From positions 1,952,001 through 2,016,000 of the forward strand of contig CAWIIQ010000001.1 in NCBI GenBank assembly GCA_963836185.1: a DNA stretch of 64,000 nucleotides, written 5' to 3'. The translations under genes and the position numbers were made by a program. Numbering within the stretch: position 1 is the first letter of the stretch; each line of letters opens with the position of its first letter. Source of the DNA: Candidatus Krumholzibacteriia bacterium. GTDB taxonomy: Bacteria > Krumholzibacteriota > Krumholzibacteriia > Krumholzibacteriales > Krumholzibacteriaceae. Below, in pieces: positions 16,939-38,657 of this stretch. The notes under the pieces are model-generated. The model saw nothing but the letters and a program-made list of their open reading frames with translations. It was not told the origin of the DNA and did not search any database.

Positions 16939-19900
16939 ATGCGCCGGATAGCACTCCTTATCCTGCTCTTTTCTATTTTCGCCGCACTGGTGCTGGCCAG
17001 GCCGTTCAATACACCTGTTATCGACGGGACCATCACGGGCGACGGCATCGACTGGGAAGCCGACGAACTTCAGGTCGACGACCCCCCTGTCGGCGCGGAC
17101 TGGGGCCCCAACCAGATCGAACAACTCTGGGTCACATACGACTCCCTCGCCCTCTATATAGGGGTCAACTACGAAGTCAGCGATAACGCGATGGTCGTCT
17201 ACATCGCCGCCGGTACAGGGACCGGAGCGCAGGACGTCAGCGGGATCGACTGGTACGCGAGAAACTTCGATTTCTCCGACGGCGTCCTGGCCGACTTCCT
17301 GATTGCGGGCTGGAACGGGAGCGATCTCGGGATAAGAAGGATCCTCGACCCGGCCACTACCGATGACATAACGAGCCTCTGCGAGAACGCCAATCTCAGG
17401 CAGAGCCCAACCGGTTTCTTCTACAACGGCGAGATAAGGATCCCCTGGGACGTGATCTACGGCAGCGATCCGGGAACGGTCCCGGCAGGGTCAGAGATCA
17501 GGATCGTCGCTGTCATCGCGGGCGGTGACGGCTGGAACGGCCCGAGTTCCGCACCGTATAATGACGGGATGGACGGCTCGGGAGCCAAGACTACACTGAT
17601 CAACATGCATACCGTGTATGTCGACATGAACGGCGACGGTATCCCCGACGCCGGCGAGGGCACGATATCCGGAGATGTACAGCTCGAAGACGCGGGCGAC
17701 CTGACGACAGTCAGCCTCCGTCGAGCTCTTCAGTGAATTCAACGACATGCGGATCGACTCTACCGCCACCGCGCCTGGCGGAGGGGCGTATATCTTCGAA
17801 AAACTGGTGGACGGCGATTACCGGGTCGAGGCATCGGCTCCCGGATACGCCAGGATCAAGCAGCCGGGCGTTATCGTCGAGGACGGCGCGAACGTGGCCG
17901 GCGTTGACATTCTTCTGACAAGGGCCGGAAAGATCACTGGTACTGTCTTATACACAGACGGCCCTGGTGTCGAAGGTATAGTCGCTGCCTATGACTCTGT
18001 GACCGGCATACTCGCCGGCGATGGAGAGAAGGATATCCCTCCCGCTGGAGGCCCCTTCGAGATCCAGGTCCCGGACGGGACCTACTACGTCATAGCCGAA
18101 GGTACGGGATACATATCCGATACACTCTCGGTAGTAATCACTGACAGCGACAGCATACATGTCGGCGACATCTCTCTCAGTTCGGTCAAGGCTACCAAGC
18201 TCGTGCTGATCGATCCTCTCGGCAGCGAGCTGGAGAGCGTCAACACAACTGTCAGCTTCCCCGACTCAGGGATCTTCTTCTACGCTTCGGCCCTGATAGA
18301 GGCGCGTGACGATCTGGACAGGCGCGACTGGTACGATGTAGACGGGTATCTGCAGCAGGTAGAGCTCCGGGCCACAAAACTGAACAACACTACGCCTCCC
18401 AGAGGGAACGTCAACTTCTATGATCCGGCCGATACGACGGAGATCACAAACCTCGCTCTTGTGGATGGCCGTGGAAACTTCCTTATCAACGATGACGCTA
18501 TAGAAGTGCTGAGAATATTCACCGAAGCACCCGCAGGCGCTGCCGATACTATCAGCGGCAGGTTCAAGTTCGGCATCAGGTCGGCTGAGCCCGAGTTCTT
18601 CGCGATCGAGATCCTCGACACGATGCTCGTCGCCGATGGTGTCGAAGAGATAACGGTATACGGAAGGCTCCTCGATGTGAGCGGCAACCCCGTACTCCTT
18701 CCTCTGGTCGGGGTAAGCTTCCTGCTCAAGGATACTTCGACCGGTGATGGAGCCTTTACAATCCCTTCAGTGGTAACCAACGCCGATGGTGAAGCGACTA
18801 CCACGATGACAGCTACTGGCGCCGGAATACTGGACGTTACCGCTGCAGTGACCTGGCAGAACAAGGAACTCGTCATCCTCGGGAAAGATGAGACAGACTT
18901 CGTGCCGGTGACGGCCCTTCCGGGACCTGCGGCAGCTATACAGCTGTCGCTGCCGGCGGACGTCGTAGGGTTCGGCGAGGATCTCGAAGTCGTGGCCCAG
19001 CTCGTCGACCAGTTCGGAAACAGCGTCTCTGAATCAGGGTACAACATCGCCTTTACCGCAGCTCCCATGGATGCGGGAACGGTAGCGCCGGAGTTCGTCG
19101 ATCTCGATGAGACAGGGCGGGGAGTCACAGTGTTCACCGCCGGCGACAGCAGGGATATCGTCAGGATATCAGCCGTCTCTACTCCTTCGCTCCCGATCAA
19201 TGACGTCTCGTTCATCATCGATCAGATAACGACCATTTCAGATCCACCGTTCCCCGAGCCCGACCCGGCCCACCAGTCCCTCGAGGCTATGGACCTGACC
19301 AAGGTACTCGTCAGCAACGACGCGGAAGCCCTGCAGTTCCAGATCCGCTTCAATACCGGGTGGGATGGCGCGCACCTGGTCCTCCTTATCGAGACAGGAA
19401 ACGACGCGGCGGGATCTACAATAGATCCGTTTGAGTTCCCCGTGACCTATGCCCATGACCTGCTGCCCGAATACGCGTTCACCTTCAAGTATTCCTCTGA
19501 CGATTACTCCGACATGAGGCGCTGGTCCGGCAGTGAATGGGAGTGGTGGGACGCGGACGGAAAGGCCTGGATCCCTACATCGGGCACCTGGGTCGAAGGC
19601 ATAAATGTGCAGGGCGACTGGACCGAAAAGGGAGCGGACTGGGTGATCTTCACCATCCCGTACGATTTTCTCGAAGGAAACATCCCTTCGACGATGCGGT
19701 TCCAGGTATACCTCACTCAGGATGCGGATGTAAAAAGGTCGGCATTCGATTCGGCGCCTCACGACTCGACGCTGAATCTCGATTTTGATCCGGACAACCC
19801 GGATATCGACTGGACGATAGCGGAGCAGAACATCGACCTGCATCACTACTCCGCCGACTACGTCATCCAGGGCGACTTCCCCCCCGCTCCTCTTCTCTCG

Positions 19901-22264
19901 AATCCGACGGCCGAGCCTGATGAAGTCGACGCGGGCGGAACCGTGACATTCACGGTCGATGTAACAGACAACGGCGGGGGGATCGGCGGCGTACTGATAG
20001 ACCTCGCTCCAATAGGCGGCTCGACGTACCAGTTCATGTACGACGATGCGACAAATGGAGACCAGGCCGCCGGCGACGGCACATACAGCTACCTTCATCT
20101 CGTCGATCCGGGGATAGCGAGCGGCCGATACGACCTGGTCGTATCGGCGAGAGACTCGATGAATATCTCCGGTATCGACTCGACCTTGTCACTTACCGTT
20201 CAGGGAACGGTCGAGCCGATACGGATACTGACCGACGAGTTGAATGACGATTTCGGCCCGAACCAGTTCGGCCGGGAGGGTCTCTATTACCTCTATCCGA
20301 CAAACCAGGTCTTCGCCAAACGGGCTTTCGATCTCGAGTCTATGACGATATTCGAGACATCGAAGATCGTCAGCGGGGAGATCATCCCCAGCCTCGCCTT
20401 CGAGGTCAAGATGGGTCAGGTCCCCGACCCGAGCCTCGAGGGGAACGCCAACTGGAACCCGCCCTACGCCGACATCAATATCCAGAAGATCGATATCATG
20501 ATCGACGCCTTCAAGGGCGGTGCGACCGAGGGGCTGCCCAACAGGCAGAACGATTTCGCAAGCTGGGACGCCTGGGATTACGCGGTCGTGATGGAGGGCT
20601 GGTACAAGGCTGTGCTTACCTCGAACAACCAGAACACCCCTTCTGCGTGGTCACAGACTGTCGCGAAGAGCGACAGGGCAATAGTACTTCTTACCGATTT
20701 CGTAAATAATACGATCACGAGTGTAGTCTCCATGGAATCCCTGGGAAATCCCACGCCTGACGATATAATGAAGTGGGACATCACGGTAGTGATGACGAGC
20801 CATGACGGGAACAGTGACGACAATAACTTCGGAGATACTCGGTGGGTAAACGCCAGCGTCAGCGAGTGGCAGATCGGAGGCGGTGACAACAGCGACCGTG
20901 ATCCGAACATAATGGACCTGATCATCTCCCCCGGAACGGGCAAGACGATCGGCAGGACCCAGAGCGAGATACTCGACTGGAAGACGGCCGAGTCCTCCGA
21001 CAGGGTCAATAACGGCCTGACGCCGTGCTACATAGACATGACGACATTCGAGGACCAGGGGCCTCCTGCCATCGACGTCGGCGAAAAGGTATCCGAAACG
21101 GTCCCGTTCCAGCCGCTCGTCAACGCGCCGCTGTATTACACGGCGATCATCGTAGACGACGACCAGGTCTCGAGATCGGTCTTCCGGTGGCGCCCCGACT
21201 CGACCTCGACGGATACCTGGTTTGAAGAGCTTCCGATGGGATACGCCGGCGGGGATATCTGGAGTGTCGACCTTCCCGTAGAGGATATGCTGCAGAACGT
21301 CATCCTCGCCCCTCTCGACAGCACGTGGAACATCGAGTTCGAGATCGAGGCTGCCGACCGCTCCGGCAACGTCACGATCACGCCGCTCCAGACGATGGAG
21401 ATCAATCTTCCGATCGAGACTTTCGTCGTAGCCGATATCGACATGAGCGAGGACTTCGAGGTAAGGGCTCCCGAGGGCACACTTATAAAGATCCCCACGA
21501 CAGCCGTACAGCAGGATGCCCTCGACGTCAGGTACAACTTCAAGCTCACATCGGAGTATGCCGATGAATATGAGCCGGAACCGCCCGGCGCGACTCCCGT
21601 TAACGTCTACAGGAAGGTCGAGTTCGAAGCTGTGTTCAGGATGGTCGAAGAAGGTGGAGATACCGTCAACGTGACTCTTCCAGTTCCTGAGTTCGAGGAC
21701 AAGATCAGCATCAGCTTCCATTACCCTGAATACAGCATCCAGAATATCGACGAGGACCTGATCGGCGTCTACGAGTATACGGCTTCGACCGGAATATGGG
21801 TCTATATAGGTGGAACGGTCAATCCCTACGGAAACCTCGTCACCGTCGATGTATCAAGGCCGGGGACCTACGCTCTCTTCTATAATCCGGAGTTCAAGTA
21901 CAGCCCGGGAGAAGTATTCTCCGGTGTCGTATTCTCGCCCAATCCCTTCTCTCCCAACGGCGACGGCCTCTACGAAGAAACCGAGATCAGCTTCTTCCTG
22001 CAGTCGGAAGCGACCGTCACGATAGAGATCTACGATATGGACGGGAACAGGAAGAGGATACTCGAGCGGAATTTCTCGATAACGGCCGAGGACACACCCG
22101 ACGCGGTGCCGAGAAGGGTGACCGGATTCACCTGGGACGGCAGGGACAACTCAGGCTACATGGTGCCGTACGGTATCTATATATTCAGGTTTACCGTGAC
22201 CTACCAGCAGGCGGCCGGACAGAGGACGATCCGGTACAATGACGCCGTGGCGGTCATCAAATAG
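16939..22264 (+). CDS. ~1770-aa secreted multidomain carbohydrate-binding surface protein (DOMON/CBM9-like, carboxypeptidase-regulatory, Big-1 Ig, choice-of-anchor X, glucodextranase-C DOMON, CHU_C/FlgD-like tail); extra A at 17713
   Basis: Signal peptide. Big-1-like LVADGVEEITVYGRLLDVSGNPV; MYDDATNGDQAAGDGTYS; glucodextranase-C-like DDFGP...YLYPTNQVF..RAFDL, WDYAVVMEGW and WQIGGG..DPNIMDL; tail FSPNPFSPNGDG...FTWDGRD..G.MVPYGIY. Confidence 0.8.
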
Positions 22265-22280
22265 GAAGGTGCCGACCCGG

Positions 22281-23153
22281 ATGAGACGGACAGTGGCGGC
22301 GATCATCATCCTCACAGCGCTCTCAGGAGCAGCAAGGGCCGATTTCCGTCATGTGCGTATGGGTCCGCGCCCCCGGGCGATGGGGTCGGCTTTCGTCGGT
22401 GTGGCCGACGATGCAAACTCGATCTACTGGAACGCCGCAGGAATGATCATGGTCGAAAAGTTCGAGCTCACCGGCTGCGGATCGAGTCTCTACGATGTCT
22501 CCGCTCTCTCAAATAACTATGTCGCCGGCGTCTACAATTTCAACAGCCGCATCGCCGTCGGCGCCAGCTGGACGAGGCTTGAGCTCAAGGACCTCTACCA
22601 CGAAGATACGATCAACCTCGGGATCGCGGCTGCGATCCCCCGCTTCGATGATTTCTCGTTCGGAGCTGCCCTGAAGATCTTCACTCTCGGCGCCCCCGGA
22701 TACGAGAAGTACAACGACCCGGCATATGAGGGTAGCGTCAACAAGGCGAGCCTTGATCTCGGTCTTTACTATCACTCCCCTAGCCAGGTGTGGTCGGCGG
22801 GATTCGTCGTATACAACGTCAACGAGCCTGGCCTTCAACTACTGACGACGACCAGCACTCCCGATCCGGTCTACCGGGACTTCGCCCTCGGCGCGAGCTA
22901 CATGTTCAGCGGACTGCTTCTCGTCTCGTACGACATCAAGACAAGATATGGAGAATTTGACAATATCATCGGGCGGCTGGGCAGCGAGATCTGGTTCTTC
23001 GACGTGGTCGCCCTGCGCGGCGGATTCGAGAGGGAAAACCTTTCCGCCGGATTCGGGCTCAAGGGCAAAAGGTGGGAGATCGACCTGGCGCTCGAGACAC
23101 ATTACGACCTTGGCAACTCTTACCTGTTCGGGCTTACTATAATGCTCCCGTGA
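22281..23153 (+). CDS. PorV/PorQ-like (FadL-fold) outer-membrane beta-barrel
   Basis: GPRPRAMGSAFVGVADDANSIYWNAAG is the N-terminal PorV/FadL signature. Signal peptide starts at ATG 22281. Confidence 0.8.
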   Translation: MRRTVAAIIILTALSGAARADFRHVRMGPRPRAMGSAFVGVADDANSIYWNAAGMIMVEKFELTGCGSSLYDVSALSNNYVAGVYNFNSRIAVGASWTRLELKDLYHEDTINLGIAAAIPRFDDFSFGAALKIFTLGAPGYEKYNDPAYEGSVNKASLDLGLYYHSPSQVWSAGFVVYNVNEPGLQLLTTTSTPDPVYRDFALGASYMFSGLLLVSYDIKTRYGEFDNIIGRLGSEIWFFDVVALRGGFERENLSAGFGLKGKRWEIDLALETHYDLGNSYLFGLTIMLP

Positions 23154-23172: not shown

Positions 23173-24780
23173 ATGGCGATGATGAAAAGGATATCGATCA
23201 TCACTCTCATATCGGCAGCCGTGCTCTCGGCCGCGGCGCCGTCATCTGCCGTCAACAAGCTCGAAGGGTTTTACGAGGTCGAAGCCTCCTTCCAGCGCCA
23301 GCAGAAGATCTGGCGATTCGGGCCTCCAGGCGGCGAAGGGATGCCCAGGCACTATCTCGAGCTTAAGTGGCTCAGCTGGCCTTCGGACAAGCTCGAGATG
23401 TACTACAAGCTCCGCGCCCAGTCTAACCGGGACGACGGCCTGACCCAGGAAGTCGAGTACAAGCGGCCCGAATACCTGTCAGCCGAAGGCCACATAAAGC
23501 TTCACGGCGATCTCTGGGAGACATACATCTTCGCCAGGGAGAACAGGTTCTGGATCAATGACGATCCCCTCCTCAAACTTGTCGACCAGAACAAGCTTAA
23601 GAACGACAACTGGGGGCCGCAGTCGAGCGGGATCAGGGCCGATTTCTGGAACAGCAATGTCGGTCCGGTACACGGCCTTAACGGAACGCTTATCTACAGT
23701 GATGACGGCGGAACATATAACTGGTCGGACGATCAAACAGAGACGGTTGCCAACGGCACGGATAACTTTATCGCGAGACTCCAGAAGAACTCGTTCAACA
23801 GCAGGCTCGAGATCGGCGCGATGTTCCTGAGGAAGGACTGGACCAACACAAGCGCGGACCGGCAGTACACGAACCTCCAATACAACCAGGTCGGGGCGAT
23901 CGACGTCTCCTTCTACCCGAGGGATTTTGTTTCCACCGGCCTCTCACTTGGCCCCGTTAACCTCGAGAATACGAGCTGGATCGTCCAGTACGCACTCAGC
24001 GACGATCCCTACGTGATAGAAACGAGCGATATCAGAACGGATGAGAACAAGTACGCATTCTCTGCCGAAATAAGAAATATCCGGATAAGAGATTTCACAT
24101 TCCACACCTGGTACAACGATTTCGGAGAGAATTTCAGGGACTATATGTCTTACAGGTTCGATGATGCCCGCGAATACAACCGTGAGCAGGTTCACGCCGA
24201 GGCGATCTTCCAGGTACCTAAAAAAGCTGTCACGGCTACTCTCTCGTACGACTATTACCAGAAGAAGATCGTAGACGAGGAAGGCGGAGGCCTGCGTCCG
24301 ACTACAAACTGGTACGGCGACATCTACATCGAGTTTATAAAAGGATTCAAGGCGAGACTCGCCTACCAGAGCTGGCACGGGTTCGACGCTTCGGGCGAGG
24401 TATATGATTTCACTACATATCCGAACTGGTACGCCGACCTCTCCGTCGAGAACAGGCTCGTCAAGGTCAGGGTCCAGGGAAGGATCAGGGACTGGAACAC
24501 CTTCAGGCAGGTGTGGGCATTCGGTTACGACATGGAATTCAACGCGACGGGAAAACTGAAGGGTTACTTCAGGATACTCAATGTAAACGAGCAGACCGAG
24601 GCACGCTCCACCCTCTTCGCGCAGATAAGATACGATATCGGGTACGGCGCCGAATTTTTCCTCGAGTACGGCAACGGCGGACAGAGCGAGCACCTCGTCA
24701 GAACGGACTATTTCGTCAACGAGGGCAGCAGTGACAGGCTCGATCATGTGCTCAAGGCATTTATGAAGCTTTATTTCTGA
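23173..24780 (+). CDS. Putative outer-membrane beta-barrel protein, unknown family
   Basis: Signal peptide, Tyr/Trp/Phe-rich amphipathic strands, BAM-type C-terminal signal KAFMKLYF. Confidence 0.65.
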   Translation: MAMMKRISIITLISAAVLSAAAPSSAVNKLEGFYEVEASFQRQQKIWRFGPPGGEGMPRHYLELKWLSWPSDKLEMYYKLRAQSNRDDGLTQEVEYKRPEYLSAEGHIKLHGDLWETYIFARENRFWINDDPLLKLVDQNKLKNDNWGPQSSGIRADFWNSNVGPVHGLNGTLIYSDDGGTYNWSDDQTETVANGTDNFIARLQKNSFNSRLEIGAMFLRKDWTNTSADRQYTNLQYNQVGAIDVSFYPRDFVSTGLSLGPVNLENTSWIVQYALSDDPYVIETSDIRTDENKYAFSAEIRNIRIRDFTFHTWYNDFGENFRDYMSYRFDDAREYNREQVHAEAIFQVPKKAVTATLSYDYYQKKIVDEEGGGLRPTTNWYGDIYIEFIKGFKARLAYQSWHGFDASGEVYDFTTYPNWYADLSVENRLVKVRVQGRIRDWNTFRQVWAFGYDMEFNATGKLKGYFRILNVNEQTEARSTLFAQIRYDIGYGAEFFLEYGNGGQSEHLVRTDYFVNEGSSDRLDHVLKAFMKLYF

Positions 24781-24783
24781 TAG

Positions 24784-26964
24784 ATGAGAGAGGAAACGAT
24801 GTTTCCAGTATTCGCAGCAAGGAGACTGACAGTGAAGACAATCGAAAGGCGCGGCCCCGGTATCACCGGATCCGGCAGGTGCGCGCGTGATCGAAGGACC
24901 GCATCGGGGAGGAACAAGACCTTCACGGCTATTGCGTCGGTGGCGGCATCGCTTCTGGTAATGCTGATGCTGCTGTCGGCGATATCCGGTCCGGCCCTGG
25001 CGTCCGTTGAAAAGGGTGACGGCGGAACGAAGTTCTCCTACAACGATCCCGAAGCGGGAGCCGTCTTCCTCGCCGGTACGTTCAACGGATGGAACGCCAC
25101 ATCACACCCGATGGAAAAGCTCAAGTCGGGGACGTGGGTCATCACTGTCGAGCTGGGGCCTGGAACGCACGACTACAAGTTCGTCGTCGACGGGGCCTGG
25201 ATCACAGACTTCGAGAACCCATCAAGCGCCCCTGATCCATATGGCGGGGTGAACTCGATCGTAACGCTCGATAACGAGGGCAATATCCTGGTCGATGCAG
25301 GCAGTGAGGAAAAGAAGATCGCCAACACCGCTTTCAGCCCGAGGGTAAATTTCAACGGCTTCTTCCTCTTCCGCGCGCCGATATACAAGAACTTCGACGG
25401 CGACGATCGCTGGAGGATGTTCAGGCCTGAGTACGGTTTCGACCTCAACTCGATCATAACGATCAACGAGCAGGTCGAAGGATACGCGAGACTGAGGGTA
25501 GATTCCCCCAGCAACCTCGCTAATGTAAACGCCGTATCTGCCTGGCTCAACGAGGCGCATATCAAGATCACGCCTCCCGGGATCATGGACCTTAACGGTT
25601 ACTACAACATGGAGGTCCTCTGGTCCGAAGATCCCCTGACACTTTTTGGCGATGAGGATCTCGAGGGAACGATATTCGACGATCATCTCAAGATAGGAAA
25701 AGGAACCGCCGGCATCGTCTTCAACAGCGACTGGCCGAAATTCGAGTTCAGGTCTTTCGCGGCAAACACGCATGACGATGATATCTACAACGATCCCGAC
25801 CTGTACGATAACACTGGTACGGACCAGGTGACCCTCCGCGGCTCGCGAAGGTTCGGATGGTTCAGGCCGGGGATCGACTACTTCCTCGAACAGAACATCT
25901 GGTGGCTTGACATGACCGACAGGATCGGAAGCACACCGTCGAATACGGGCATCCCGCGGCTCGATGAATATATAGACGCAAGCGGGGACCCGAGCGACTG
26001 GTATGAGTTCCAGGGGAAAACGTGGTATGTCGGCATCGACGCCTACCTTTATTTCCTCGACGACAAGTTTGTTCCCGGCATACAGTACATGCGCGGTGAA
26101 GCTGGACAGGGATTCGTGACGAGCAACAGCTCAGGGCTCGATTTCGAGAACGGCCCTATCGACGTACCCATAGCGGACAGGGATGCCACGATATATCACG
26201 TGGAAATGCCTTTCAGGGGCATTGAGAACCTTTTCCTTAACGCCGAGTACAATCGCCGCGAACTTCTCGGAGTGGATTCCGACGAATCCCTTATCACGCC
26301 CGTATTCCTCCCCAATGACGAAGCTAACAAGCAGATCTATTTCGACGTCGACCAGAACCCTCCCGCGTACACCCGTGATTACGGCGAGTTCGAGGCAAGA
26401 TGGACTAAGGACGGCCTCGACGCAAGGCTCTGGGTAGAGCGTGAGATGGAAAAGTATGACCGTGCGGACGAGGATCTCAGCGCTTACCAGTACAGGCTGT
26501 CCGTTTCTCCTGGAATCAAGCTAACCCTCTGGGATGCTTTTGATCTCGGGTTCGAAGGGAAGTTCTCCAATCTCGACGGCTCGAAAGAATTCGATATGGA
26601 CGGCAACACCTACGAAGGGATATTCAGGGGAGCCTGGTGGTTGACAAGCAAGTTTGCCTTCATGTGCGATGTAAGGATAATCAATTACTCGCTCGATGAG
26701 ACCGAGACTCGGGGAGACTTCAGCGATACCTTCTATAATCCTTTCGTGGGATTCGAGTACCGCTTCCTCAAAAAGGTAAACCTCGTCTTCGCATACGGCG
26801 TCGATCCTGTCACCTTCGACAGGGATTACGGCGGAAGGCAGACTGGAAGATGGGACTTCAGACAGGCCTACATGTGGGAGAACCCGGACGCCACGACGGT
26901 AGACGCGGAAAACGCTCTTAACGATGTTCAGGCATTCACACTCAGAGCGACATTCCGCTTCTAG
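24784..26964 (+). CDS. CBM48/AMPK-type glycogen-binding domain fused to a putative outer-membrane beta-barrel
   Basis: After the signal: AVFLAGTFNGWN...LGPGTHDYKFVVDGAWITD..NP...PDPYGGVNS. Then about 500 aa of barrel-like strands ending LRATFRF. The exact start codon is uncertain. Confidence 0.75.
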   Translation: MREETMFPVFAARRLTVKTIERRGPGITGSGRCARDRRTASGRNKTFTAIASVAASLLVMLMLLSAISGPALASVEKGDGGTKFSYNDPEAGAVFLAGTFNGWNATSHPMEKLKSGTWVITVELGPGTHDYKFVVDGAWITDFENPSSAPDPYGGVNSIVTLDNEGNILVDAGSEEKKIANTAFSPRVNFNGFFLFRAPIYKNFDGDDRWRMFRPEYGFDLNSIITINEQVEGYARLRVDSPSNLANVNAVSAWLNEAHIKITPPGIMDLNGYYNMEVLWSEDPLTLFGDEDLEGTIFDDHLKIGKGTAGIVFNSDWPKFEFRSFAANTHDDDIYNDPDLYDNTGTDQVTLRGSRRFGWFRPGIDYFLEQNIWWLDMTDRIGSTPSNTGIPRLDEYIDASGDPSDWYEFQGKTWYVGIDAYLYFLDDKFVPGIQYMRGEAGQGFVTSNSSGLDFENGPIDVPIADRDATIYHVEMPFRGIENLFLNAEYNRRELLGVDSDESLITPVFLPNDEANKQIYFDVDQNPPAYTRDYGEFEARWTKDGLDARLWVEREMEKYDRADEDLSAYQYRLSVSPGIKLTLWDAFDLGFEGKFSNLDGSKEFDMDGNTYEGIFRGAWWLTSKFAFMCDVRIINYSLDETETRGDFSDTFYNPFVGFEYRFLKKVNLVFAYGVDPVTFDRDYGGRQTGRWDFRQAYMWENPDATTVDAENALNDVQAFTLRATFRF

Positions 26965-26982: not shown

Positions 26983-27402
26983 ATGATGTTGAAGAATATA
27001 TCAAGAAGGACGATTATTGCGGCGGCATCAGCGACACTGCTCATGATGACCGTATCCGGCTGTTTCATGACCGACATGATCCGTAACCGTCTTCCGGCCC
27101 CACACTCAACCGACAAGGGGATCTTCTTCCAGTATGATGCGCCATCGGCCAAATCCGTCAACCTCGCCGGTAACTTCAATAACTGGGCCGGCACCCAGGG
27201 CTCCGGAAGGTTCGACCCTACGATCGATCCGATGACCGACGAGGATGGAGACGGGATCTGGGAGATCTACAAGGAGCTCAGACCTGGCCGATACCAGTAC
27301 AAGTACGTGATCGACAACGGCACCAGGTGGGTGCTCGATCCGAGCAATCCGGACCAGGGCGAGGAAGGCGGATTCGTCAACTCGCTGATAATCGTCAAGT
27401 AG
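26983..27402 (+). CDS. Lipoprotein consisting of a CBM48/glycogen-binding domain
   Basis: Lipobox VSG-C; AKSVNLAGNFNNW...MTDEDGDGIWEI..ELRPGRYQYKYVID..RWVLDPSNP...GGFVNS. Confidence 0.85.
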   Translation: MMLKNISRRTIIAAASATLLMMTVSGCFMTDMIRNRLPAPHSTDKGIFFQYDAPSAKSVNLAGNFNNWAGTQGSGRFDPTIDPMTDEDGDGIWEIYKELRPGRYQYKYVIDNGTRWVLDPSNPDQGEEGGFVNSLIIVK

Positions 27403-27478: not shown

Positions 27479-30400
27479 CTACTGCAGGACCAGTATCGCG
27501 CCTGAGAGCTGTTCGATTCCTATATCGAGAACTCCGCCTGTGACTGTGTAGCTCCCGCCTCCTAGTTTGTCGACCAGCGTCGCTCCATCGGCGAATCCGA
27601 ACCCTCCGAGATCTAGCTTTACCGTCGCCTTCGCGCCGCTGTTGTTCAGGGCTACGACGATCCTGTTCGCTTCGTCTTCCCTGATGAAGGAGTAGAGTTT
27701 GCCGTCGGCCAGTACCGTCTGGAAAGTACCGGTTCGCAGAGCGGGATACTCTTTCCTGATCCCAATGACCTTGCGATAGAAATCATGTACCTTTACTCGC
27801 CTGGGGCTCTCTTCCCAGTTCCACGGGAAGGTGCGCCTGCAGTCGGGGTCCTTGCCGCCTCTCATACCCACCTCGTCTCCGTAGTAGATCTGCGGGAATA
27901 CCGACGTAAGTCATCTGGAAGAGTGTCGCGAGCATCAGCCTCTCCGACTTGTTACCGGCGGTCGTCAGGAAGCGCTCCGTGTCATGGCTGTCGACCAGGT
28001 TCATCATCACCTGTGTCGCCTGGAGAGGATAGAGAGAACGTCCGGGAGCGAGCTCGTTGTCGAGCTGAGCCGCCGAGCCATGTCCCTGAGCGAAGAACTT
28101 CAGAACGGGGTCGCGGAAATACTTGTAGTTCATCGTCGAATGGAAGCCGTGAGGACCCATCCACGGCATCGCGTTCCCCCATATCTCACCGATCAGGAAG
28201 GCGTCAGGCTTGACCTCGTCGACTACCGTGCGGAACTCCTTCCAGAACCAGAAGGGGACCTCGTTCGGAACATCGAGCCTGAAGCCGTCGATGTCGAGTT
28301 CGCCGAGCCAGTATCTCGCTACCTCCCTGAGGTACTCGACGAGGGGCTCGTTCACCTTCGCCTCGCTGATATCGGTTATCGCGTTCTCCTGGGCATTGGG
28401 CCTCGAGAGATCGAAGTTGAGGTTGGGGTGGATACCGAATCCCCACCAGCAGTCGTAATAGTCGAGGGGGTTGGGAATATCTCCCTCGGGAAGGGGCCAG
28501 CGCTTGAACTCGTACCAGTTCCAGTATTCCGACTCGCGTCCCTTCTCGACCGCGTCGAGGAAGGCGAAGAAATAGTTGCCCGTATGGTTGAATGCCTTAT
28601 CGACGATGATTCGGATACCGTTATCGTGGGCCTTCTTGACGAACTCCTTGAAGGTCGCCTCATCGGCGAAGTGCGGATCGAGCTTCTTGTAGTCCATCGG
28701 GTCGTACTTGTGATTCGACCTCGCTTCGTTGAGAGGGTTGAAATAGATGATCGTCACGCCGAGGTCAGCGAGGTAAGGTATCTTCTCCATGACGCCGGCT
28801 ATGTCACCGCCGTAGAACGAGTAGTAGTCCGGCTTGCCGTCTGTCCTGTAAGGGCTGCGGGTAAGGCCGCTCACATCGTACCAGTTCTGAACGAAGTGGA
28901 AATACTCGCCGTTGGTCTGGCCCGACTCGGGAAGCTCGGTCACATCCTTATAGTAGAACTCCTTGAAATCCGGGTCGTTCGACTTGTCGCCGTTGGCGAA
29001 ACGTTCTGGGAATATCTGGTAGAAGACTCCATCCTTGGCCCAGTCAGGTGTAAAGAAGGGAGGAACTTTCTCTGAATCGTAATGGAACATCTCTCCTTCA
29101 GCCTGCCTCTCCCCCACGAAACCCTTAGGGGTGGCGAAGAAGAGCTCACCGCCGTCGGCGAAGACGAACATAAAAGAGACCTTCTTGCTGGCAGGGACCT
29201 CGAGGACATGCCTGTAGTACTGGAAGACGACGTCCTCGCCATATGGAGTCATCTCTACGATATCCTCAGCCCCATCGACTACGTAGAGCATCTGAACGGT
29301 CTCTACATCGCCCAGGTGCGCACGGGTCTTGAACTCTATGGCGTTCTCCGAGAGCGGGTTGACCATCGAATAGTCCATAACGAGGGAAATATCCTTGTTC
29401 ATCATCTCGCCGTCGCCCAGTTCGGTCTTTATATCGTCGTAACGGTCATCGACGACGATGACCGAGTTCTTTCCGCCGAATCCATCGTCCTCGAAATCAT
29501 CGGCCCCTTCATCGGTCATCCAGTTCCCGTCGACGACGAACTTATACTGGTGCCTGCCTACGGGAAGCATCAGCGTGGCCTCGTAGGCGCCGTCGCCGTC
29601 ATCGTCGGTCATCCTCGTCTTTGAATCGTTCCAGTCATTGAACGTACCTGCGAGGAATATATTGGTCACGCCGCTGATCACCGGCTGGAACCTGAAGGTG
29701 ACCTCCTTCATCCCCTGCCCAGCCGCAGCCGCGCCGGCTCCGGCAGCACCCGCCGCGGCGGGCACTACACCCTCGATCCCGTCGGGGACCTTCGAGTACA
29801 TACCGACTATCATCGGTGTGCCGGCCACCACGGTTAGGACCGAGTTCTGTCCCCCGAAACCGTCATCGACGAAACTGGCAGCGTTCTCGTCTGTAAGCCA
29901 GTTGCCGTTATCGACGAACTTGTAGTGGTACTCTCCCGGCGCCATATTCTTGACGAGGACATGGATCCCGTCTCCGTCATCATCGCTCATCATCTCGGCG
30001 GTCGGGTCCCAGCCGTTGAACGAGCCTGCCACGAATACCTGTGAGGTCTTGCCCTCCCCTACCTCGAAGAGGAATGTGACCCTGACTTCGCCTCCAGACG
30101 CGGGCTCTGCCGCAGGTTTCGCGGCAGTTTTCGCGGCGACCGCCCCTCCACCCGCGGCGATTCCGACGACCAGCGCTTTCCCGTCGGCAGGAACGTCGAC
30201 TACCGAATTCTTGCCGCCATATCCGTCGTCAGTCTCTGCCGCCGCTGCGGGGTCGGCCTGCCAGCTGCCATCGACGACGAACTTATACTGGTACTGGCCC
30301 GGCGCCAGTTTCAGCGTCATCTCATAAATACCGTCCTTGTCGTCATCCTTCATCAGGTCCTTGTCGGAGCTCCAACTGTTGAACGAGCCGGCGAGGTAGA

Positions 30401-30521
30401 CCGCTCCAGGCGACCCGCCGGGCTGAAAGGTGAATGTCACCTCGGCATCGGCGGCGCTGACGGCGGAGGCGGATAACACAAAGGCCAGAAGCAGTATAAT
30501 CGTATTGAAAGAACGGAACAT
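27479..30521 (-). CDS. GH13 neopullulanase/cyclomaltodextrinase-like alpha-amylase with signal peptide and three tandem CBM48 modules (frameshift ~27892)
   Basis: FYQIFPERFANGD, GGDIAGV and SNHKYD; conserved regions DKAFNH, GFRLDV, GEIW and LVDSHD; C-terminal GGKDPDCRRTFPW. Three LAG(S/T)FNxW...YKFV(V)DG repeats. Confidence 0.92.
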
Positions 30522-30811: not shown

Positions 30812-33241
30812 CTACCTCAGAAGGATCATCTTACGGCTCATCTCGAGATCTCCTACCATGAGACGGTAGAAGTAGACTCCGCTCGATATCTGCCTTCCGT
30901 GCATGTCCGTCGCGTCCCACGTGACACTGACTTCACCCGCGGCTACTACGTCGTCGACGAGCGTCTGAACGAGCTCACCCTTGACGTTGTAGACGTTCAG
31001 GACGGCCCTGCCCCTCTCCGGCACGCTGAATGTGATCGTCGTGACTGGGTTGAAGGGATTGGGGAAGTTCTGCTTGAGAGCGAACGGGATCGTCGGGGTC
31101 TCCTCGGTTACATCGATCCAGCACGTGTTGAAATATGCCAGGTCGAGTATCTGTGGACTCCCCAGATCGTCGTACGCCTCGTCGAGATAGAAGCTCCTGT
31201 TCGCCTGCGTGGAGCACTCGTATGTAGAGTTCATCAGGTACTTGAACTCTACGAACTTGCCTGACGAGTCGGGGAAAATAATCGATGTCGCGTAGATACC
31301 GTCGCCCGCTGTATCGTCCGGCCCGGTCCCGTCATCGGCCATAGGATTGATCGAGGGGATCGCCCAGCTGAGCACGAGCGGAAGCTGGTTGTTCTCGTTG
31401 CCGTTTACCGCGATCGTATCGCCCGCTCCCGGCTTGACCCACCTCGTGTCGACCTTGAAGACGACCTCGATCGCTTTTCCGATCGTGCTGCAGCGATCGT
31501 AGTACTGCAGGGGCATCACGATCGGGCCCATTGTTCCGCCTATCGTATCGAACTCGGCGTCGTTGAGCCATACGTTCCTGTCGCCCTCGAGCTGACACTC
31601 GTAAACGTCGTTATAGACATACTTGTACCCGACGTTCTTCGGAGAAAGGGGACCGAACCTGACAACGAGGGAATAGATGCCGTCAGCTGCCGTGGCATCG
31701 GGATAGATCCCGTCGTCGGCCATCTCGTTGAGAGAGGGTACGTCGAAGCTCAGCGGCGCGGCGTTTCCGTTAATCGCCATGATGCTGTCGAGAGTCGCGC
31801 CGTAAGTGTTGGCATCGACTGTAAAGACCACGTCGATGGCGTGGGCGGTAAAGCTGCCCGCGTCCTCATCGTGCCACCAGTACTCGAGTGTATCCCACGG
31901 GCTGTCATCAGTGATCAGGTGGGTCCTGTTCGCTGCGAAGGGCTCGTACTCCGAGCACTGGTGCGCGAACTTCCACTCGAGGGTGGTGTCTGGCTACTAC
32001 CCACGAAGATCCCTGCTCTTCTCCGAGAAGGGAGAACGAGGCATAGCCCACATAGATGCTGTCGCTGTTGTCTGCAAGGAACATGTTGTCACAGAGCCCG
32101 AATGTCAGCGGAGCGAGGCTGCCCTCCACGGTAAAGGTATCGACCGCCGGAGCGACCGAATGCTGCCTCATGTGAAGGCCCATAAAACCCTTCCACATCA
32201 GGCCCTTGTAGAAGAACGCACCCATGTTTGTCAGGCCGACTGGATCGTGGACGATCGGGTTGCCCGCGAGATCCTCCACGTTGGAGACGATGACGGAATA
32301 GCTGGCATATGCAGGTGATATCGAGGCATCGAGCTGGATAGTCACCCTGTCGGGGAATGTCGCGTTCCTCGTCACGCTCGTGATACTCGCAGAGGTACCA
32401 CTGATCGAATAGTTAGTTGTCGTCTCAGCGGTTGTCTCGTCTACAGGTTCGCTGAACTTAACGACGAGAAGATCGGTGCTGAGGTCCCCGCTCGCCTGGC
32501 CCTGTTTGCCCTCGGCGTAAAAAGCGTCTACTGTCGGGGCGATATTGTCCGCCGACGACTGGATGATATACATGAACATCGAGTCGAGTTCGACAGGTGC
32601 CGTACGTCCATACCGTGGGGCCGCCTGCTACGCTGAGCTGGTCATCGTCCCCCGCCATCAGGTCCAGGGGACCCTTGGTCGATCCGTCCTGTGTCGAGAT
32701 CACCTCGAAGTAGATCGTATCGCCCGGAGCCAGCCCCAGGTCGCTGAGGTTGAGGCCGAACTCCTCGAATCCTGTGTTGTTGACCCAGCCAAGCGAGCCT
32801 GTTCCGGCATAGACAGCCGGGTCCCAGGTTGAACCGGTGTCGTCCCAGTGCCTCAGCTCCTGCCACAAGTTGTCCAGGTTGACGTACGCGTAGAAATCCG
32901 GTTTGTGAGGAGCGTTCGTCCAGGCTATCGCCCGTCCCCACGGATCGGTTGTGCCTCCAGGTTCGCCCGTCGAGATGGCGATCCCGACCTGGTTGGTCGT
33001 CCAGCTGCCCTTGTCATACTTAATACCGAAATATAAGCTTGTTCGTGTCGTTCGTCACGAAGATCGAGTCGAGGTCGAGCTCGGCGAACTCAGTATCGCC
33101 GCCGTCCGCGTCGATGAGATTACCAACGAGGAAATCGTTTGCCCCGTCGACGACGATCGTCTGCGGAGTCGCCGCCAGGACCAGTCCAGCCATGACGAGC
33201 GCCGCGAGAAACATGAATCCGAGATGTTTTCTATAATTCAT
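30812..33241 (-). CDS. Secreted non-catalytic protein: DOMON-like, SbsA/Big-5 Ig, three CBM20-like repeats (two with choice-of-anchor X) and FlgD/T9SS type-A tail (multiple frameshifts)
   Basis: Fragments 33020-33241, 32458-32868, 31908-32579 and 30812-31831. Motifs VKFSEPVDETTAETTTNY, MADDG..PD..A.DGIY (twice), EFKY...YEC...NR, and tail KQNFPNPFNP...SRKMILLR. Confidence 0.72.
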
Positions 33242-33294
33242 CTCTTTCCGCCTCCTCCTTTCAAGAGTCCCTTGACCCTGCTGAAACTCGTCTC

Positions 33295-36200
33295 TTATCT
33301 CAATAGCACCATCTTGCGTGTCTGGAGCTGCTCACCCGTTATCATCCTGAGAAAATATATCCCCGAGGATACCGCGATCCCGTTCTCGCTCATCCCGTCC
33401 CAGGTCACTTCCGCCGGACCGGCCGGCATCGAACTGTCGACCAGTCTCTTTACCAGGCTGCCGCGGACATCGTAGATGTTTATCACTACCCTCGCGCTTG
33501 TCGAGCCGCTCCCCTCTGCCCTGCCCGGCACGTCGAATCTTATCACAGTCGAAGGGTTGAACGGGTTGGGGAAATTCTGGTAGAGACGGGCAGGGTACTT
33601 GACGGTCCTGCCGTCATCCCCGGTGGTCGAACCGCGGATCATGAAGGTGCTGCCCGGAATTATCTCGTTCCTGTAGCACGAAACATCCGTCACGCCGCTG
33701 ACTGAGACAGAGTATCCGTAATCGATATCGTACCCCAGTGCGAGCTGGACGGTCTTGCCGTCGGGCTGGAGTGTCGCGGAAAGTACCGGCACCGTGTTGG
33801 ACGGGACCGATGGTCTGGTAGACAGTGTAGTTGGCGACATTCTCCGCGCCCTGTCTCCTCGACTTCCTCACTGAACAGTACGTTCACAAGGCTGTCGGCG
33901 GCAGCGTCCCTGCTCGCATATTCGATGAGTCGGGGATACGAGATCGTCCGCCTCGTCGGGAACGCCGTCGCTGTTGCCGTCGACCGTGAATGTATACACA
34001 TTATCGATCGTCGGAAGAAGGGCCGATATATTGTTTGGCGCCGAATCCCCGCCGAGCTCGCCGTCAGGCTCGGGATCCCAGCAGATCGAGGCCACTATCG
34101 ATATCGAGGCGCCGGCCGGTACGGTGTTGTGCCCGAGTCCGAAGAGGATATCCCACGGGATAGCCAGCTCGCTCCCGCCGAGGTCCCCGTTGATGTGCTG
34201 CGAATCGAAATCTGAGAATATCGAATCAGACAGCGATGCCGTGGTCGTGGCGCTCTCTATCCTCTCGAACGAGTCCCCGTCGTACTGACCCTGGTGCTGG
34301 TAGCAGCCGTACTGGAAGTCGGCCCTGAAACCGGAGGCTGTGAAGGCCGCGCCCCTCTCCCAGCTGTCGATCGCCGTAAGGTCGGTCTGGCCGTTCGGGC
34401 CGCCCGGATCGGTGTCGAAGTAGATCAGCCAGCTGTTGCCGGTGACTACACCGTCGAGTGCCACGTAGAGGTATGTCGAATCCCACGTGACATAGAGTGC
34501 GTCGATCTCGTTCGCCGCGGTCCACTCCGAGTCGTTCGAATCGGCGACGGCCATGCGGCATTCGTTCCATTCATCAGTATCGATAAAGCCGTCGATCGTC
34601 ACCATGGTCTCGGGTCCGTAATAGACGGGGATGTCATCCACGCTGGTAATCGCGTTGTTAGGATTACCGTTCATATCGAATGCCGTGGAGGATGCCATCA
34701 TCAGCTCCATCGCACCGGTATCGAGCGCCTCCAGGGCGGCAGCGTCCGGGGAGGTCAACTGCAGCGTCAGCTGGAAAGAGCTCAGAAGTCTCGATGACCG
34801 TCAGTCCCCGACGAAAGGGTCAGCTCGGGGATACCGTCATCGTCATCATCGATCGAGACACCAGTCACGACGAACGTCGAATGATCGGTCACCTGGTTGA
34901 ACTCTAGCTTGAGCTTGTCAGAACCCGGGAAGTATGTCGCGGATAACGGAGCGGGGCCGATCGTATCGGCCAGTCCCGCAAGGGCACGCAACTCGGCTAT
35001 CTCGCCGGTGCCGTCCGGCGCGCTTGTCGTTCCCGCGTAGAAAAGGAATTCGAAGACTCCGCTGCCGTAGAACTCGTCGCCCTTCATGATCCTGCCGGAG
35101 AAATCGAAGTTGTGCGATGTCCCCGCCTGTCCGGCGATGATCGCGGCGGTAGCGCCATTGTTCGGGTTGCGCTGGCCGTAGTAGGCTGTGTCACTTACCC
35201 AGACGCGGTCCATCTGCGCGTTCCAGAGCAGATCAACAAGCCCCGGGGAGTATCCGTTCTTGATATACTGCGTCGTGCGTCCGACCTCGTAAATAACGTC
35301 AAGGTAAGGCTGTCCGGCTGTCAGCTTGACCAGCTTGCGAACTCCCTGGTGGGTCATCTCGACCTCGACGGTCGTGCCTGTAGGCTGGATGATCGTCATG
35401 TCGTACTGGTTGTGCTGGTAGTCGGGTCCGACGTCGCTGAGCAGGCCGACATGGTTGACGTCGTTGTAGTCGCCCTCCGTTCCGGCCCAGTACGCGACGT
35501 CCACACCGATGACGGAAAAGTCGTAGCCGGGACCCTTGGCGAATAGGTTCGTCGCCCGGCCGCCCGTACCCTCGAATACGGCGAAGAGGCGGTCGTTGTG
35601 CATGACGAGCTCGTTCCATCCGTCGTTGTCCATGTCGGCGAAGTACGCTCCCGTAGTGGCGGCATACTCGCCGTTCGCCCAGTGCGCCGCCTCGGCGTAC
35701 ATGTTCGTGTTCTTGATATGGCCCGAATAGAGGAGCTGCCAGCCGCTTATATCCCCGCCGAGGCCGTCGTGCCAGCCGGTCTCATGGAGGTTCATCATCA
35801 GCGTGTACCAGCCGCCCTGCGAGATGTTGTTGTCAGGTGCGGACAGGAGGGCGTTGTACGCGTCGTTCCATATCGTTCCGTGGTCCTTGCAGTTGCCTCC
35901 GCGGCCCGCGTCGCAGAGCCCGCTGCCGTCGCCGCCGGAGGAATACGGGATATACCCCGCGTAGTGTGTGTACCAGCCGTTGTTCCCGCCGCCGTACCCG
36001 GCGGTCCCGCCGATCTCGGTATATGTGCCGTATGTGACGTTGAATGATGAACTGCCGTTGAAGTTCGGGTTGGTCACCGCGTCGGCGACTTTCCATACCG
36101 AGATCCAGGCGCTTTCCTCTGAGCATTTGCCTATGAACCAGTCGTAGGTCTCCTTGGCGTTCGGGGTCGAGGTCGCCCAGCTCCCCATCTCGGCGGCAGC

Positions 36201-37584
36201 TTCCCAGTCCTCGGCGTACAGGGCGATGCGGTAGTCCCCAAACCCAGAGTTGTGAAGGTCGGTCAGTATCTGCAGGGCCGCCGCACCGTTTCCGCCGACG
36301 ATGTTCCCGGTGAAGCTGCGGTCCCGCGGGATGACCTTCAAGGTGCTCCCGCTGAACTGGTGTATCTGGTGATTATCGTAGCCCTGGCAGTGAACATCGT
36401 CATCGAGGATGACTGCCCAGATGCCATGACTCTCCCAGTTGTCGATCAGGTTGTCGATCACCCCCGCATCGGGATAGGCGCCCGGATCGAGCCATACCCT
36501 CTCCGGAACCCATGCGACGCGCGGGTAATATCCGTATCTCGTATTGGTCATCTGAGTCTGGACATTGACGGCCCAGTCGTTCATCGAGTTATGAACGAAC
36601 GGCATCATGTGCTGGCCCCATGCCGAGCTGACCATCCCGGCCCAGCCAGCCGTGACGCCCGAGGCGAGCCACGCGTTGAAATCGCCGGGATCGCCGTTGT
36701 TCGCGTCCCACTCGGCCGAGGTCTGAAGCGGTCCGCAGAGATGGAAGTTTCCGGGGATCGATGTCGCCTCGTGGACCTGGAGCTGCCTCGTCGAAACCGC
36801 TGCCCTCGGGATCGTCGTACCTGCCCCAGAAGACATCGCTGTATGCGAGCCCCTGGTTCCCGTGATGGACGAAAGCGCAGTTGGCGCCTGGCGACAGCGG
36901 AGACATCGAGTCGGCGGAGAGCCTGTCGACCACCTTCCCGCCTGATACCGAGATCACCTCGAATGTGACCGGAGTCCCTGACGGGGCCGACGGCAATTTC
37001 GATGCTCGCAACGCGGCGTCAGAGAACGACCGCGAGACAGCGACCGCTCCCTCGAGATACTCCCCCTTGTGATTTACCAGCGCCCTGGTGAGAACCGGGG
37101 CAGGGCCTGCCAGATCAGTGGCGAACGACAACGCCCTTGAAGCTGTGTCCTTTGAAAGGGGAGAGAGGACGACCGCCTCGTCCCAGTCTATCGACGCGGA
37201 ACCTGGAAGTCCCGCCGGAAGGGTGGATCCTCCACCGTCCTGGTAATCTATCAGGACGATGATCCCGGGCTCATCCCTGCTGAAGAGGTCCACTCCGCCG
37301 GCAGGATCTATCATGCGCGCCATGCTGACCCTGAAGACGAGCTCCTCTCCCGCCTCGTGGAAATAGAAGGCGAGGATATCGGCTCCTTCGGATCCCGAGG
37401 GTACGTCGAGGACGTCGTCCACTGCCCTGACGTGATCACGCCCCCAGCTGAACAGTGGCAGGCCCTCGGAACTGCCGAGCAGATCGACAGTGGCCGGGTT
37501 CCGTGCTGCGGGTGCCGGACCGGAGAGCAGAAAGAGTATTACTGGTACAGCGAGAAGACAGGTGATAGGTGACCTGGGACTCAT
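33295..37584 (-). CDS. Secreted GH57 glycoside hydrolase (4-alpha-glucanotransferase/amylopullulanase-like) with DOMON-like and Ig domains and FlgD/T9SS type-A tail (frameshifted)
   Basis: Signal peptide; FVHHGNQ, HLCGPL, WVPERVW (nucleophile) and YAEDWE (acid/base); DUF1926-like DMDNDGWNELV...GGR; tail YQNFPNPFNP...TRKMVLLR. Fragments 36589-37584, 34782-36836, 33868-34758, 33690-34001 and 33295-33840. Confidence 0.8.
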
Positions 37585-37747
37585 CGTTCCTCCAGACAGG
37601 CTCTGCCGGGCCCGGCGCTCAGCTTCGCTTCGGGCACGTCGATGTCAAAAAGGCGGTCCGGATGCAGGATAGTCCACCGGAAGCTGCAAGCCGCCGGCAA
37701 CACTTCCGGCCGCCTCAAAAACTCGCATCAAAACGTGTTAAAAACAG

Positions 37748-37791
37748 AAAAGGGGATATCTTCAGCCGGTAATTGACAGAAGATATCCCCT
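37748..37791 (-). terminator. Intrinsic terminator
   Basis: Inverted repeat AGGGGATATCTTC...GAAGATATCCCCT with a T tail on the minus strand. Confidence 0.8.
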
Positions 37792-37808
37792 CGACGATCA
37801 GTGTGACC

Positions 37809-38657
37809 CTAGTTATGGATCTTCTTGATCGCACCCCATGTCGACTCTTCTGTGCCTATTCCGCACAGAGGACAGTCGTCCCCTACGTAATTGTTCCAGT
37901 GGTCAACCCACGGAATAATGTAGACAGGACCGGAATCGTCGATGGTGACCATTCTGTTACCACCCGGCTCCCAGTCAACACAGTCATGAATCTTGTACTT
38001 CCACTCGATAGCAGGATTGCCGCCTGAAGCAAAGAGAATACCGACCTCGTAATAGAGCGGGCTGGCTCCCAGACAGGGCTGAACCATGGGAACACCGGCG
38101 CCCCAGGCTGTCAGCTCAGCAGCACTTCCTACTACACACACGCCGCCGGGAGCGGGGTCATAGCTCTCGTCTCCCTCCGGGGGCAGGCAGATTCGGAAAT
38201 ATACCATCACGTCCTGGCCGAGGGCCGCGGTGATGTTGAGCTTGAACGGAGGATCGTTGCTGTTCTGGTCCTGGGCACTGGCGGTCGAGCCGTCGGTCCC
38301 GTCATAGACTTCGCAGTAGAACCAGATCTCCGAGTTGCCCTCGAGAGCGGCAGCGGGGATATCTCCCTTGTACTCGTCATTGTTTCCTACGTCACCCCAG
38401 TAGCCCATCGCTACTTCAGTGTAAGGGCCGCCGAACGGGCCATAGAAAAGACTCGCGGAGAGTGAGTCACCCTGTCCCTCGGCGTCGGTGAAGCCTTCCT
38501 TCCAGATCTGGACGTAGACTCCGACGTCAGCGCCCTCGGTCACGGTATAATCGTGAGTGGGCCATACGTTCCCGGACCAGCCGACTGCCGCCATGGAGGC
38601 ACCTGAAAGGGCCATCAAGACTGTAGCGGCTACGATGCACGTTAGCACCTTTTTCAT
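37809..38657 (-). CDS. Secreted protein with a CBM20-like starch-binding domain and C-terminal TWGAIK motif
   Basis: Signal peptide; VGNNDEY motif; CBM20-like VCVVGSAAELTAW...IEWKY...WEPGGNR; ends GTEESTWGAIKKIHN. RBS AAGGAGG. Confidence 0.75.
   Translation of the reverse strand: MKKVLTCIVAATVLMALSGASMAAVGWSGNVWPTHDYTVTEGADVGVYVQIWKEGFTDAEGQGDSLSASLFYGPFGGPYTEVAMGYWGDVGNNDEYKGDIPAAALEGNSEIWFYCEVYDGTDGSTASAQDQNSNDPPFKLNITAALGQDVMVYFRICLPPEGDESYDPAPGGVCVVGSAAELTAWGAGVPMVQPCLGASPLYYEVGILFASGGNPAIEWKYKIHDCVDWEPGGNRMVTIDDSGPVYIIPWVDHWNNYVGDDCPLCGIGTEESTWGAIKKIHN

Follow-up and report, generated by a model that had tools for sequence, protein, structure and literature searches.

Glycan uptake across the outer membrane is known mainly from two designs: small passive porins such as LamB and CymA, built of 18 and 14 strands, respectively, and the plugged, energised SusCD systems. 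The available portions of PMC11658791 describe the plug as a defining part of TonB-dependent transporters. Here, we analysed a stretch of 64,000 nucleotides from a Candidatus Krumholzibacteriia bacterium (assembly GCA_963836185.1, contig CAWIIQ010000001.1, positions 1,952,001 to 2,016,000; hereafter the window). The open reading frame (ORF) at 24784-26964 on its plus strand (726 amino acids (aa), reading frame intact), hereafter the target or gene D, encodes a carbohydrate-binding module of family 48 (CBM48) fused to a predicted 22-stranded plugless barrel. Judging from sequence comparison and structural modelling, we think on balance that the target is a subunit of a TonB-independent maltodextrin channel complex with periplasmic CBM48 catchers, and it is likely part of an undescribed uptake route for starch fragments in uncultured bacteria. 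No description of a CBM48-barrel fusion or of its gene cassette was found in the literature covered, which left out subscription journals and supplements. The target was divided as follows:

24799..25002, plus strand: likely start and signal peptide ending ALA-S (sequence; N-termini of relatives)
25027..25275, plus strand: CBM48 (AMPK-beta type) with W30, K59, W66, Y80 and N84 in mature numbering (profiles, alignment, fold match)
25276..25344, plus strand: linker, variable in length among relatives (AlphaFold2 model; relatives)
25345..26964, plus strand: predicted 22-stranded outer-membrane barrel, plugless, with a C-terminal Phe (model, fold matches, topology)

The ATG at 24799, with a GAGGA-like site upstream, is the likelier start because six of the nine closest relatives listed begin at, or share their N-terminus at, MFP; an extension of the ORF to 24784 is possible, and the choice leaves the anatomy unchanged. 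The hydrophobic signal region, read from the sequence, ends in ALA before S, and mature residue 1 is therefore at 25003. Inspected by eye for a TonB box, the mature N-terminus passes directly into the CBM48. This module matched two Pfam profiles over their cut-offs (PF16561, E 7e-14; PF02922, E 1e-10), the NCBIfam matches in the target were restricted to the same part, and the domain superposed on solved CBM48 domains (4aef, Z 13.1, root-mean-square deviation (rmsd) 1.8 over 90 residues). When the target was aligned to the CBMs of AMPK beta subunits, W30, K59, W66 and N84 corresponded to W100, K126, W133 and N150 of AMPK, while Y80 presumably corresponds to L146. The four AMPK residues are critical glucan contacts according to the available portions of PMC4032982. 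Among 355 proteins fetched, 130 matched the barrel profile and 117 covered it fully. The pattern W-K-[WY]-[YF]-N was kept in 137 of the 142 CBM48 domains of these full-length relatives, and the CBM48 of the target looks functional for glucan binding by this comparison. Furthermore, the fusion was conserved in 116 of the 117 full-length barrels: one copy of CBM48 precedes the barrel in 91, two in 24 and three in one, and the single relative with none is N-terminally truncated.

AlphaFold2, run on a 75-sequence alignment, modelled the target with a mean predicted local distance difference test score (pLDDT) of 88.8 and a predicted template-modelling score of 0.79. Twenty-two membrane strands were predicted across mature residues 115-652, counted by hand on the DSSP list, short strands within loops being excluded. 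The gaps before even strands were 7-44 aa and those before odd strands 2-9 aa, and this modelled alternation of long loops and short turns is the pattern of an outer-membrane barrel. In standard barrel topology, long loops point outward and short turns and termini are periplasmic; from the alternating gap lengths, the long loops (L3, 33 aa; L5, 29 aa; L7, 32 aa; L11, 44 aa) would therefore lie outside and both termini of the target on the periplasmic side. A signal peptide, an even number of amphipathic strands, loop alternation and a C-terminal aromatic residue were all found in the prediction. The original prediction, made from the window alone, had proposed a signal peptide, one CBM48 and a C-terminal barrel, an anatomy borne out by the sequence, Pfam and the AlphaFold2 model. 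Its barrel, the part on which it turned, is upheld by the 22 strands modelled at this pLDDT, while its length of about 500 aa gives way to about 540 aa. The BAM-type ending TFRF that it had read also holds: the target ends ATFRF, and 116 of the 117 full-length relatives end in F and one in Y.

The remaining residues of the target, about 560, had no Pfam or NCBIfam match, and the barrel profile had 0 matches to PDB sequences at E 10. Pfam searches with 35 barrel sequences returned four single weak matches (E 0.02-0.09), none of them credible; PF00593 and SusC models matched neither the target nor any of the 35 at E 0.1, and PF02264 (LamB) matched neither the target nor the 35. By these profile searches, the barrel is outside every catalogued family of Pfam, NCBIfam and the PDB sequences. 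A fold search with the barrel returned FyuA (Z 15.9, rmsd 5.6 over 389), LamB (15.4), MtrB (15.4) and PiuA (15.3), and these matches reflect generic barrel likeness. The FyuA alignment spans its residues 136-649, that is, it starts past the plug, and the alignments to TonB-dependent transporters do likewise. In the target, nothing but the CBM48 and a linker of about 20 aa lies ahead of strand 1, with no Plug match at E 0.01. Other candidates were set aside: the MOSP and DUF6029 look-alikes from Atlas (0.93-0.95, plus unnamed clusters) came without an alignment and were taken as generic barrel likeness, and MOMP and TonB-dependent transporters reached Foldseek TM-scores of only 0.3-0.43.

Conserved Arg, Asp and Glu columns of the barrel face the lumen, with an acidic L3 and arginines on strands 1-3, if orientation is read from alternation; in porin constrictions, acidic residues face arginines. 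Family-wide conserved residues gather on strands 1-8, on strands 19-22 and in the last loop. Model confidence in the linker fell below a pLDDT of 50 at mature residues 99-113; the linker is short among relatives, with a median of 9 aa beyond the domain edges. The CBM48 is predicted to lie on the periplasmic face because the N-terminus of the target is on the short-turn side of the modelled barrel, and a tethered periplasmic domain fits better than a plug because 25 of the 117 relatives carry two or three CBM48s and the linker is floppy. Of the two roles first proposed for the module, the same evidence thus favours the periplasmic catcher and speaks against the plug or gate.

The target belongs to a five-gene module: genes A, B, C, D (the target) and E lie on one strand in that order, with gaps of 3-20 bases. 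[quoted passage not shown]

16939..22264, plus strand: gene A, surface protein, with a frameshift near 17715 compared with an intact relative (Pfam/CHU_C)
22239..23153, plus strand: gene B, PorV/PorP-like barrel, probably starting at 22281 (matches to NF033709, E 1e-18, below cut-off, and to TIGR03519, E 2e-4)
23173..24780, plus strand: gene C, predicted 24-stranded plugless barrel (AlphaFold2 pLDDT 92.1)
26983..27402, plus strand: gene E, lipoprotein with CBM48, Cys at 27061 (Pfam, alignment)
27479..30521, minus strand: gene F, GH13 amylase with a signal peptide and three CBM48s, facing the module (frameshift near 27880)
30812..38657, minus strand: a pair of T9SS type-A cargo genes, both frameshifted, and a small protein that weakly matches CBM20, upstream of gene F

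Gene C matched the ushers PapC (Z 16.5) and FimD (Z 16.3) best in fold. It is a distant paralogue of the target barrel over the N-terminal strands (hhalign P 84%, E 7e-6); BLASTP gave no match between the two barrels, which are linked by profile comparison alone. Both barrels are in families absent, as far as these searches detect, from Pfam, NCBIfam and the PDB sequence set. Gene E carries a conserved I-K/R-x-R-L-P-x-P segment, with an invariant Arg and Pro directly after the lipid-bearing Cys. Gene A comprises a weak N-terminal CBM9/CBM74-like domain, immunoglobulin-like (Ig) domains, Glucodextran_C and a type-B-like T9SS C-terminal domain; its CHU_C tail scored 27 bits, at the cut-off, and TIGR04131 was below its cut-off. 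By analogy, protein A is probably displayed on the gene B barrel, because Bacteroidota type-B cargos are anchored by cognate PorP-like barrels, according to the available portions of PMC9143113 and PMC12618676, and because the same genome encodes SprA elsewhere (match over cut-off). Gene F resembles maltodextrin glucosidase and cyclomaltodextrinase in Pfam and NCBIfam. Its catalytic motifs look intact by eye, a judgement that assumes the usual features of the family. These results collectively extend beyond the original prediction, to a module of five genes that also includes a second barrel of 24 predicted strands, a lipoprotein with a CBM48 and a surface protein anchored via the T9SS.

Some further features of the window were recorded. 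As a CBM74, the N-terminal domain of gene A reached only E 0.017 (Atlas 0.79-0.80) and was kept as a lead. An uncatalogued domain of about 240 aa, weakly CBM74/CBM9-like (window 16939-17736; L011:6212-7330; L016:4579-6132), accompanies the cassette in most loci and sometimes forms the whole cargo; it may be a surface lid or sugar binder. The large frameshifted T9SS type-A cargo at 33295-37584 (minus strand), a relative of which lies upstream of the cassette in L012, is a possible new secreted glucanase. A GH57 identity for the cargo at 34782-37584, suspected from motifs reminiscent of GH57 hydrolases, found no support from Pfam, PDB or BLAST to GH57. Compared with intact relatives, many genes carry frameshifts (for example at 17715, 27880 and 32000-33200; also in L080), probably through assembly errors rather than as pseudogenes. 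A serpin with a lipoprotein-like signal peptide at 38950-40164 (plus strand; PF00079, E 2e-103) adjoins the amylolytic cluster. A scan for promoters and terminators gave chance-level counts (10 versus 7.0±3.0; 13 versus 10.0±3.3).

The cassette was then followed across 78 loci, drawn from the best 80 of 500 confirmed stretches in a genome scan; 37 loci were assigned to the target gene, L023 among them on the strength of its position and C-terminal Phe, although it gave no match to the barrel profile. Gene E came next after the target in all 35 loci with downstream sequence. Gene C preceded the target in 34 of the 37 (absent in L013 and L072; L018 has no upstream DNA), and a PorV-like gene was present in 30 of the 37 (absent in four WOR-3 loci and L013; two have no DNA there). 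A GH13, GH57, debranching or MalE/F/G gene was found in 27 of the 37 loci, and in 18 of the 20 spanning at least 15 kb. Krumholzibacteriota, Eisenbacteria, Cloacimonadota, WOR-3 and Elusimicrobia appear among the titles, and the named protein relatives are from Krumholzibacteriota/Latescibacterota; some other taxon labels sit among Krumholzibacteria in the tree and are possibly wrong. Three variants stood out. Barrel domains are shorter (about 470-530 aa) in the WOR-3 loci L016, L026, L059 and L072 and in the Elusimicrobia locus L023. Barrel plus lipoprotein looks like the minimal unit (WOR-3 cassettes have no adjacent PorV-like gene, and L072 and L013 no partner barrel). In Cloacimonadota loci, a MalE-like binding protein is fused to a MalF-like permease (L011:1128-3389).

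The target also co-occurs with a binding protein whose best PDB match is 6ffl, a maltose/maltodextrin-binding protein (E 4e-126), referred to here as MalE. Among 201 genomes of the same phylum, 142 matched the barrel profile and 70 had a MalE orthologue. At a barrel threshold of E<1e-45, which was picked after the scores had been seen, 66 genomes had both, 9 the barrel alone, 4 MalE alone and 122 neither; MalE was thus present in 66 of 75 barrel genomes versus 4 of 126 others. The split recurred within families (both/barrel alone/MalE alone/neither: f1, 9/1/3/29; f6, 42/3/1/41; f4, 5/0/0/7; f8, 6/0/0/3), and five of the nine barrel-alone genomes belong to family f5, both fetched loci of which are linked to ppdK. 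Among 61 Cloacimonadota genomes, nine had the barrel; a MalE orthologue was present in eight of these nine, on the same contig in seven of the eight, and in 0 of the 52 without the barrel, three of which had distant matches (1e-35 to 1e-42). Because related genomes do not count as independent and linkage between the genes is frequent, we read this co-occurrence as showing that barrel and MalE travel together, not what the barrel does. The genome of the window (92.5% complete) encodes MalE, MalF/G, MalK and a debranching enzyme 32-85 kb upstream and had no LamB or SusD (PF07980) match; SusD was also not found in five other cassette genomes. The maltodextrin link first proposed for the target gains support from the conserved binding residues, the neighbourhood and the co-occurrence with MalE; taken as a whole, the original interpretation is partly supported.

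If the target serves a maltodextrin channel, the following sequence of events would account for the module. The T9SS of the genome would export protein A through its type-B C-terminal domain, and the PorV/PorP-like barrel B would hold it, as in Bacteroidota type-B pairs. Held on B, protein A would bind alpha-glucan at the surface. Dextrins would diffuse through the target barrel, the 24-stranded partner C or both, narrowed by long in-folded loops. The periplasmic CBM48 of the target and that of lipoprotein E would catch the emerging chains and keep their free concentration low; the periplasmic GH13 enzyme would trim the dextrins, and MalEFGK would import the products.

Several observations, given in this paragraph and the next, weigh against a maltodextrin channel. 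A LamB-like aromatic slide could not be assigned in the target barrel; Y161, Y200 and W477 are among the few conserved aromatic columns on the polar face, their orientation inferred from alternation alone. In the model, the long outer loops might close the lumen. The genome encodes four TonB-dependent barrels. At a looser threshold of 1e-30, the co-occurrence counts became 66/18/4/113, that is, MalE in 66 of 84 barrel genomes; the counts include non-independent kin, and the association may in part reflect one co-transferred island.

In addition, the same genome carries a second, paralogous cassette (G000:C1, about 1274.8-1280.0 kb; L080:8797-14031), a finding also beyond the original prediction. 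It comprises a PorV-like gene, a barrel, a CBM48-barrel and two CBM48 lipoproteins, and it follows ppdK and genes for a CDP-alcohol transferase and a DUF4388 protein, with a giant Ig-repeat protein coming after it. All nine fetched ppdK-linked loci (20 kb) contained ppdK and no starch gene, and 64 of the 67 genomes in which all barrel matches were weak had no MalE orthologue. The architecture is not always for starch import, because the ppdK-linked cassette is widespread in genomes of related families and in genomes without a MalE orthologue. In a quick barrel tree of 43 rows, six ppdK-linked copies formed a supported group, and two others (L087 and L088) stood apart with weak backbone support. 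The WOR-3 barrel was found in 12 of 61 genomes (E<1e-20), none with a close MalE orthologue and four with a distant binding protein (about 1e-24); three of four WOR-3 loci had no starch gene, and the fourth had a MalG-like match alone. These copies without MalE, ppdK-linked and WOR-3, imply that the module either predates starch import or reaches beyond it. In the ppdK-linked copies, the last binding residues of the fused CBM failed to align in seven of nine and the second Trp was lost in four of nine; the first lipoprotein deviated in seven of seven, and the second kept W-K-W-F-N in six of six. At the level of sequence, this erosion in copies that lack starch genes agrees with the intact type having a role in glucan binding or handling.

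The sealed-lumen possibility leads to an unlikely alternative, in which a loop-sealed barrel would act as a scaffold, organising a surface-to-periplasm platform that holds A/B, E and the glucan-binding modules, while sugar crosses through C or elsewhere; in the ppdK-linked cassette, the platform would serve adhesins. The four outer loops of 29-44 aa, the clustered conserved residues, which look like an interface, and the persistence of gene order in ppdK-linked copies, often beside giant Ig-repeat proteins, all suit such a platform. It sits less well with binding residues that are almost fully kept in starch-linked copies and eroded in most ppdK-linked ones, with the conserved charged columns facing the lumen, and with a genome that has no other recognisable maltodextrin pore (LamB, SusCD). 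We regard as improbable a gated or energised transporter, whose CBM48 would lie in or against the lumen as a plug and be opened by ligand or pulled by a TonB-like motor. Twenty-two strands are the size of a TonB-dependent transporter and the 24 strands of partner C that of an usher, ushers carry a beta-sandwich plug, and the linker is short among relatives; yet there is no Plug or TonB-barrel Pfam match, the tandem CBM48s of the 25 relatives and the low model confidence of the linker argue for a tether, and no TonB/ExbBD was found among the 49 neighbour proteins scanned, which are part of all neighbours.

Still fainter is the prospect of a T9SS accessory, in which the two barrels and CBM48-fold domains would aid export or display of the surface protein and the CBM48 fold would be structural, as in the T9SS Plug protein. 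This is favoured by the close linkage with a PorV-like gene and with a type-B cargo, and by weak matches of NF052315 (T9SS_plug) to the CBM48s (E 0.005 in gene D of L072; E 1e-13 in gene F). However, the genome encodes SprA at another place, no PorV-like gene adjoins the barrel and lipoprotein that the four WOR-3 loci retain, the glucan-binding residues are conserved, and the target gene tracks MalE, not the T9SS. Least probable of all, the target could be an export pore for a secreted alpha-glucan, comparable to AlgE, PelB or BcsC, with the CBM48s guiding the chain outward. Further down the fold matches were polysaccharide secretins (Z 13.8 between AlgE and C; Z 12.2 between PelB and the target), and the ppdK-linked cassette adjoins a DUF4388/c-di-GMP-motif gene, but the starch-linked neighbours are hydrolases and an importer, and in the 49 neighbours scanned none of the glycosyltransferase families turned up repeatedly.

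We therefore keep the maltodextrin channel complex as the preferred reading of the target. A bolder form of it, which we put forward tentatively and consider doubtful, is a third glycan route that is neither LamB-type nor SusCD: a TonB-independent 'utilisome' in which a plugless pair of 22- and 24-stranded barrels, a T9SS-delivered lid on a PorV-like barrel and periplasmic CBM48 catchers would ratchet long alpha-glucan chains inward, spread across several uncultured phyla, with a paralogous copy repurposed beside ppdK and giant adhesins. If the channel reading is true, a plugless barrel the size of a transporter, bearing a sugar-binding module on the inner side, would represent another design for uptake; it would explain starch and glycogen feeding in phyla of sediment and sludge that have neither SusD nor LamB (Krumholzibacteriota-like, Eisenbacteria, Cloacimonadota), and the target gene would be a marker for a starch-feeding lifestyle.

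Compared with the described systems, the target shares with LamB and CymA a plugless outer-membrane barrel tied genetically to MalE/F/G/K and a periplasmic GH13, and LamB is among its top fold matches (1mpr, Z 15.4, rmsd 6.8 over 307). It differs from both in its 22 predicted strands, the absence of a PF02264 match, the fused periplasmic CBM48 or CBM48s, an obligate-looking CBM48 lipoprotein, a second barrel and a T9SS-anchored surface protein. With SusC/SusD and TonB-dependent transporters it has in common a 22-stranded barrel and a starch locus with surface glycan-binding proteins and amylases; in contrast to them, it has no plug, no PF00593 or PF07715 match and no SusD, its surface partner is a T9SS cargo and not a lipoprotein lid, its CBMs are predicted to be periplasmic, and lipoprotein E is a CBM48. 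The A/B pair resembles a T9SS type-B cargo with its PorP-SprF-like shuttle, gene A ending in CHU_C and being followed by the PorV/PorP-like gene B; the available portions of PMC9143113 and PMC12618676 do not describe such pairs with two large barrels and CBM48 modules, and B matches below curated cut-offs. The CBM48 itself has the equivalents of W100, K126, W133 and N150 of AMPK beta, but here the module is exported as part of a fusion with a membrane barrel. Taken together, the target would act in the manner of LamB within a mal system and its genes are arranged as in a Sus locus, but it belongs to neither group.
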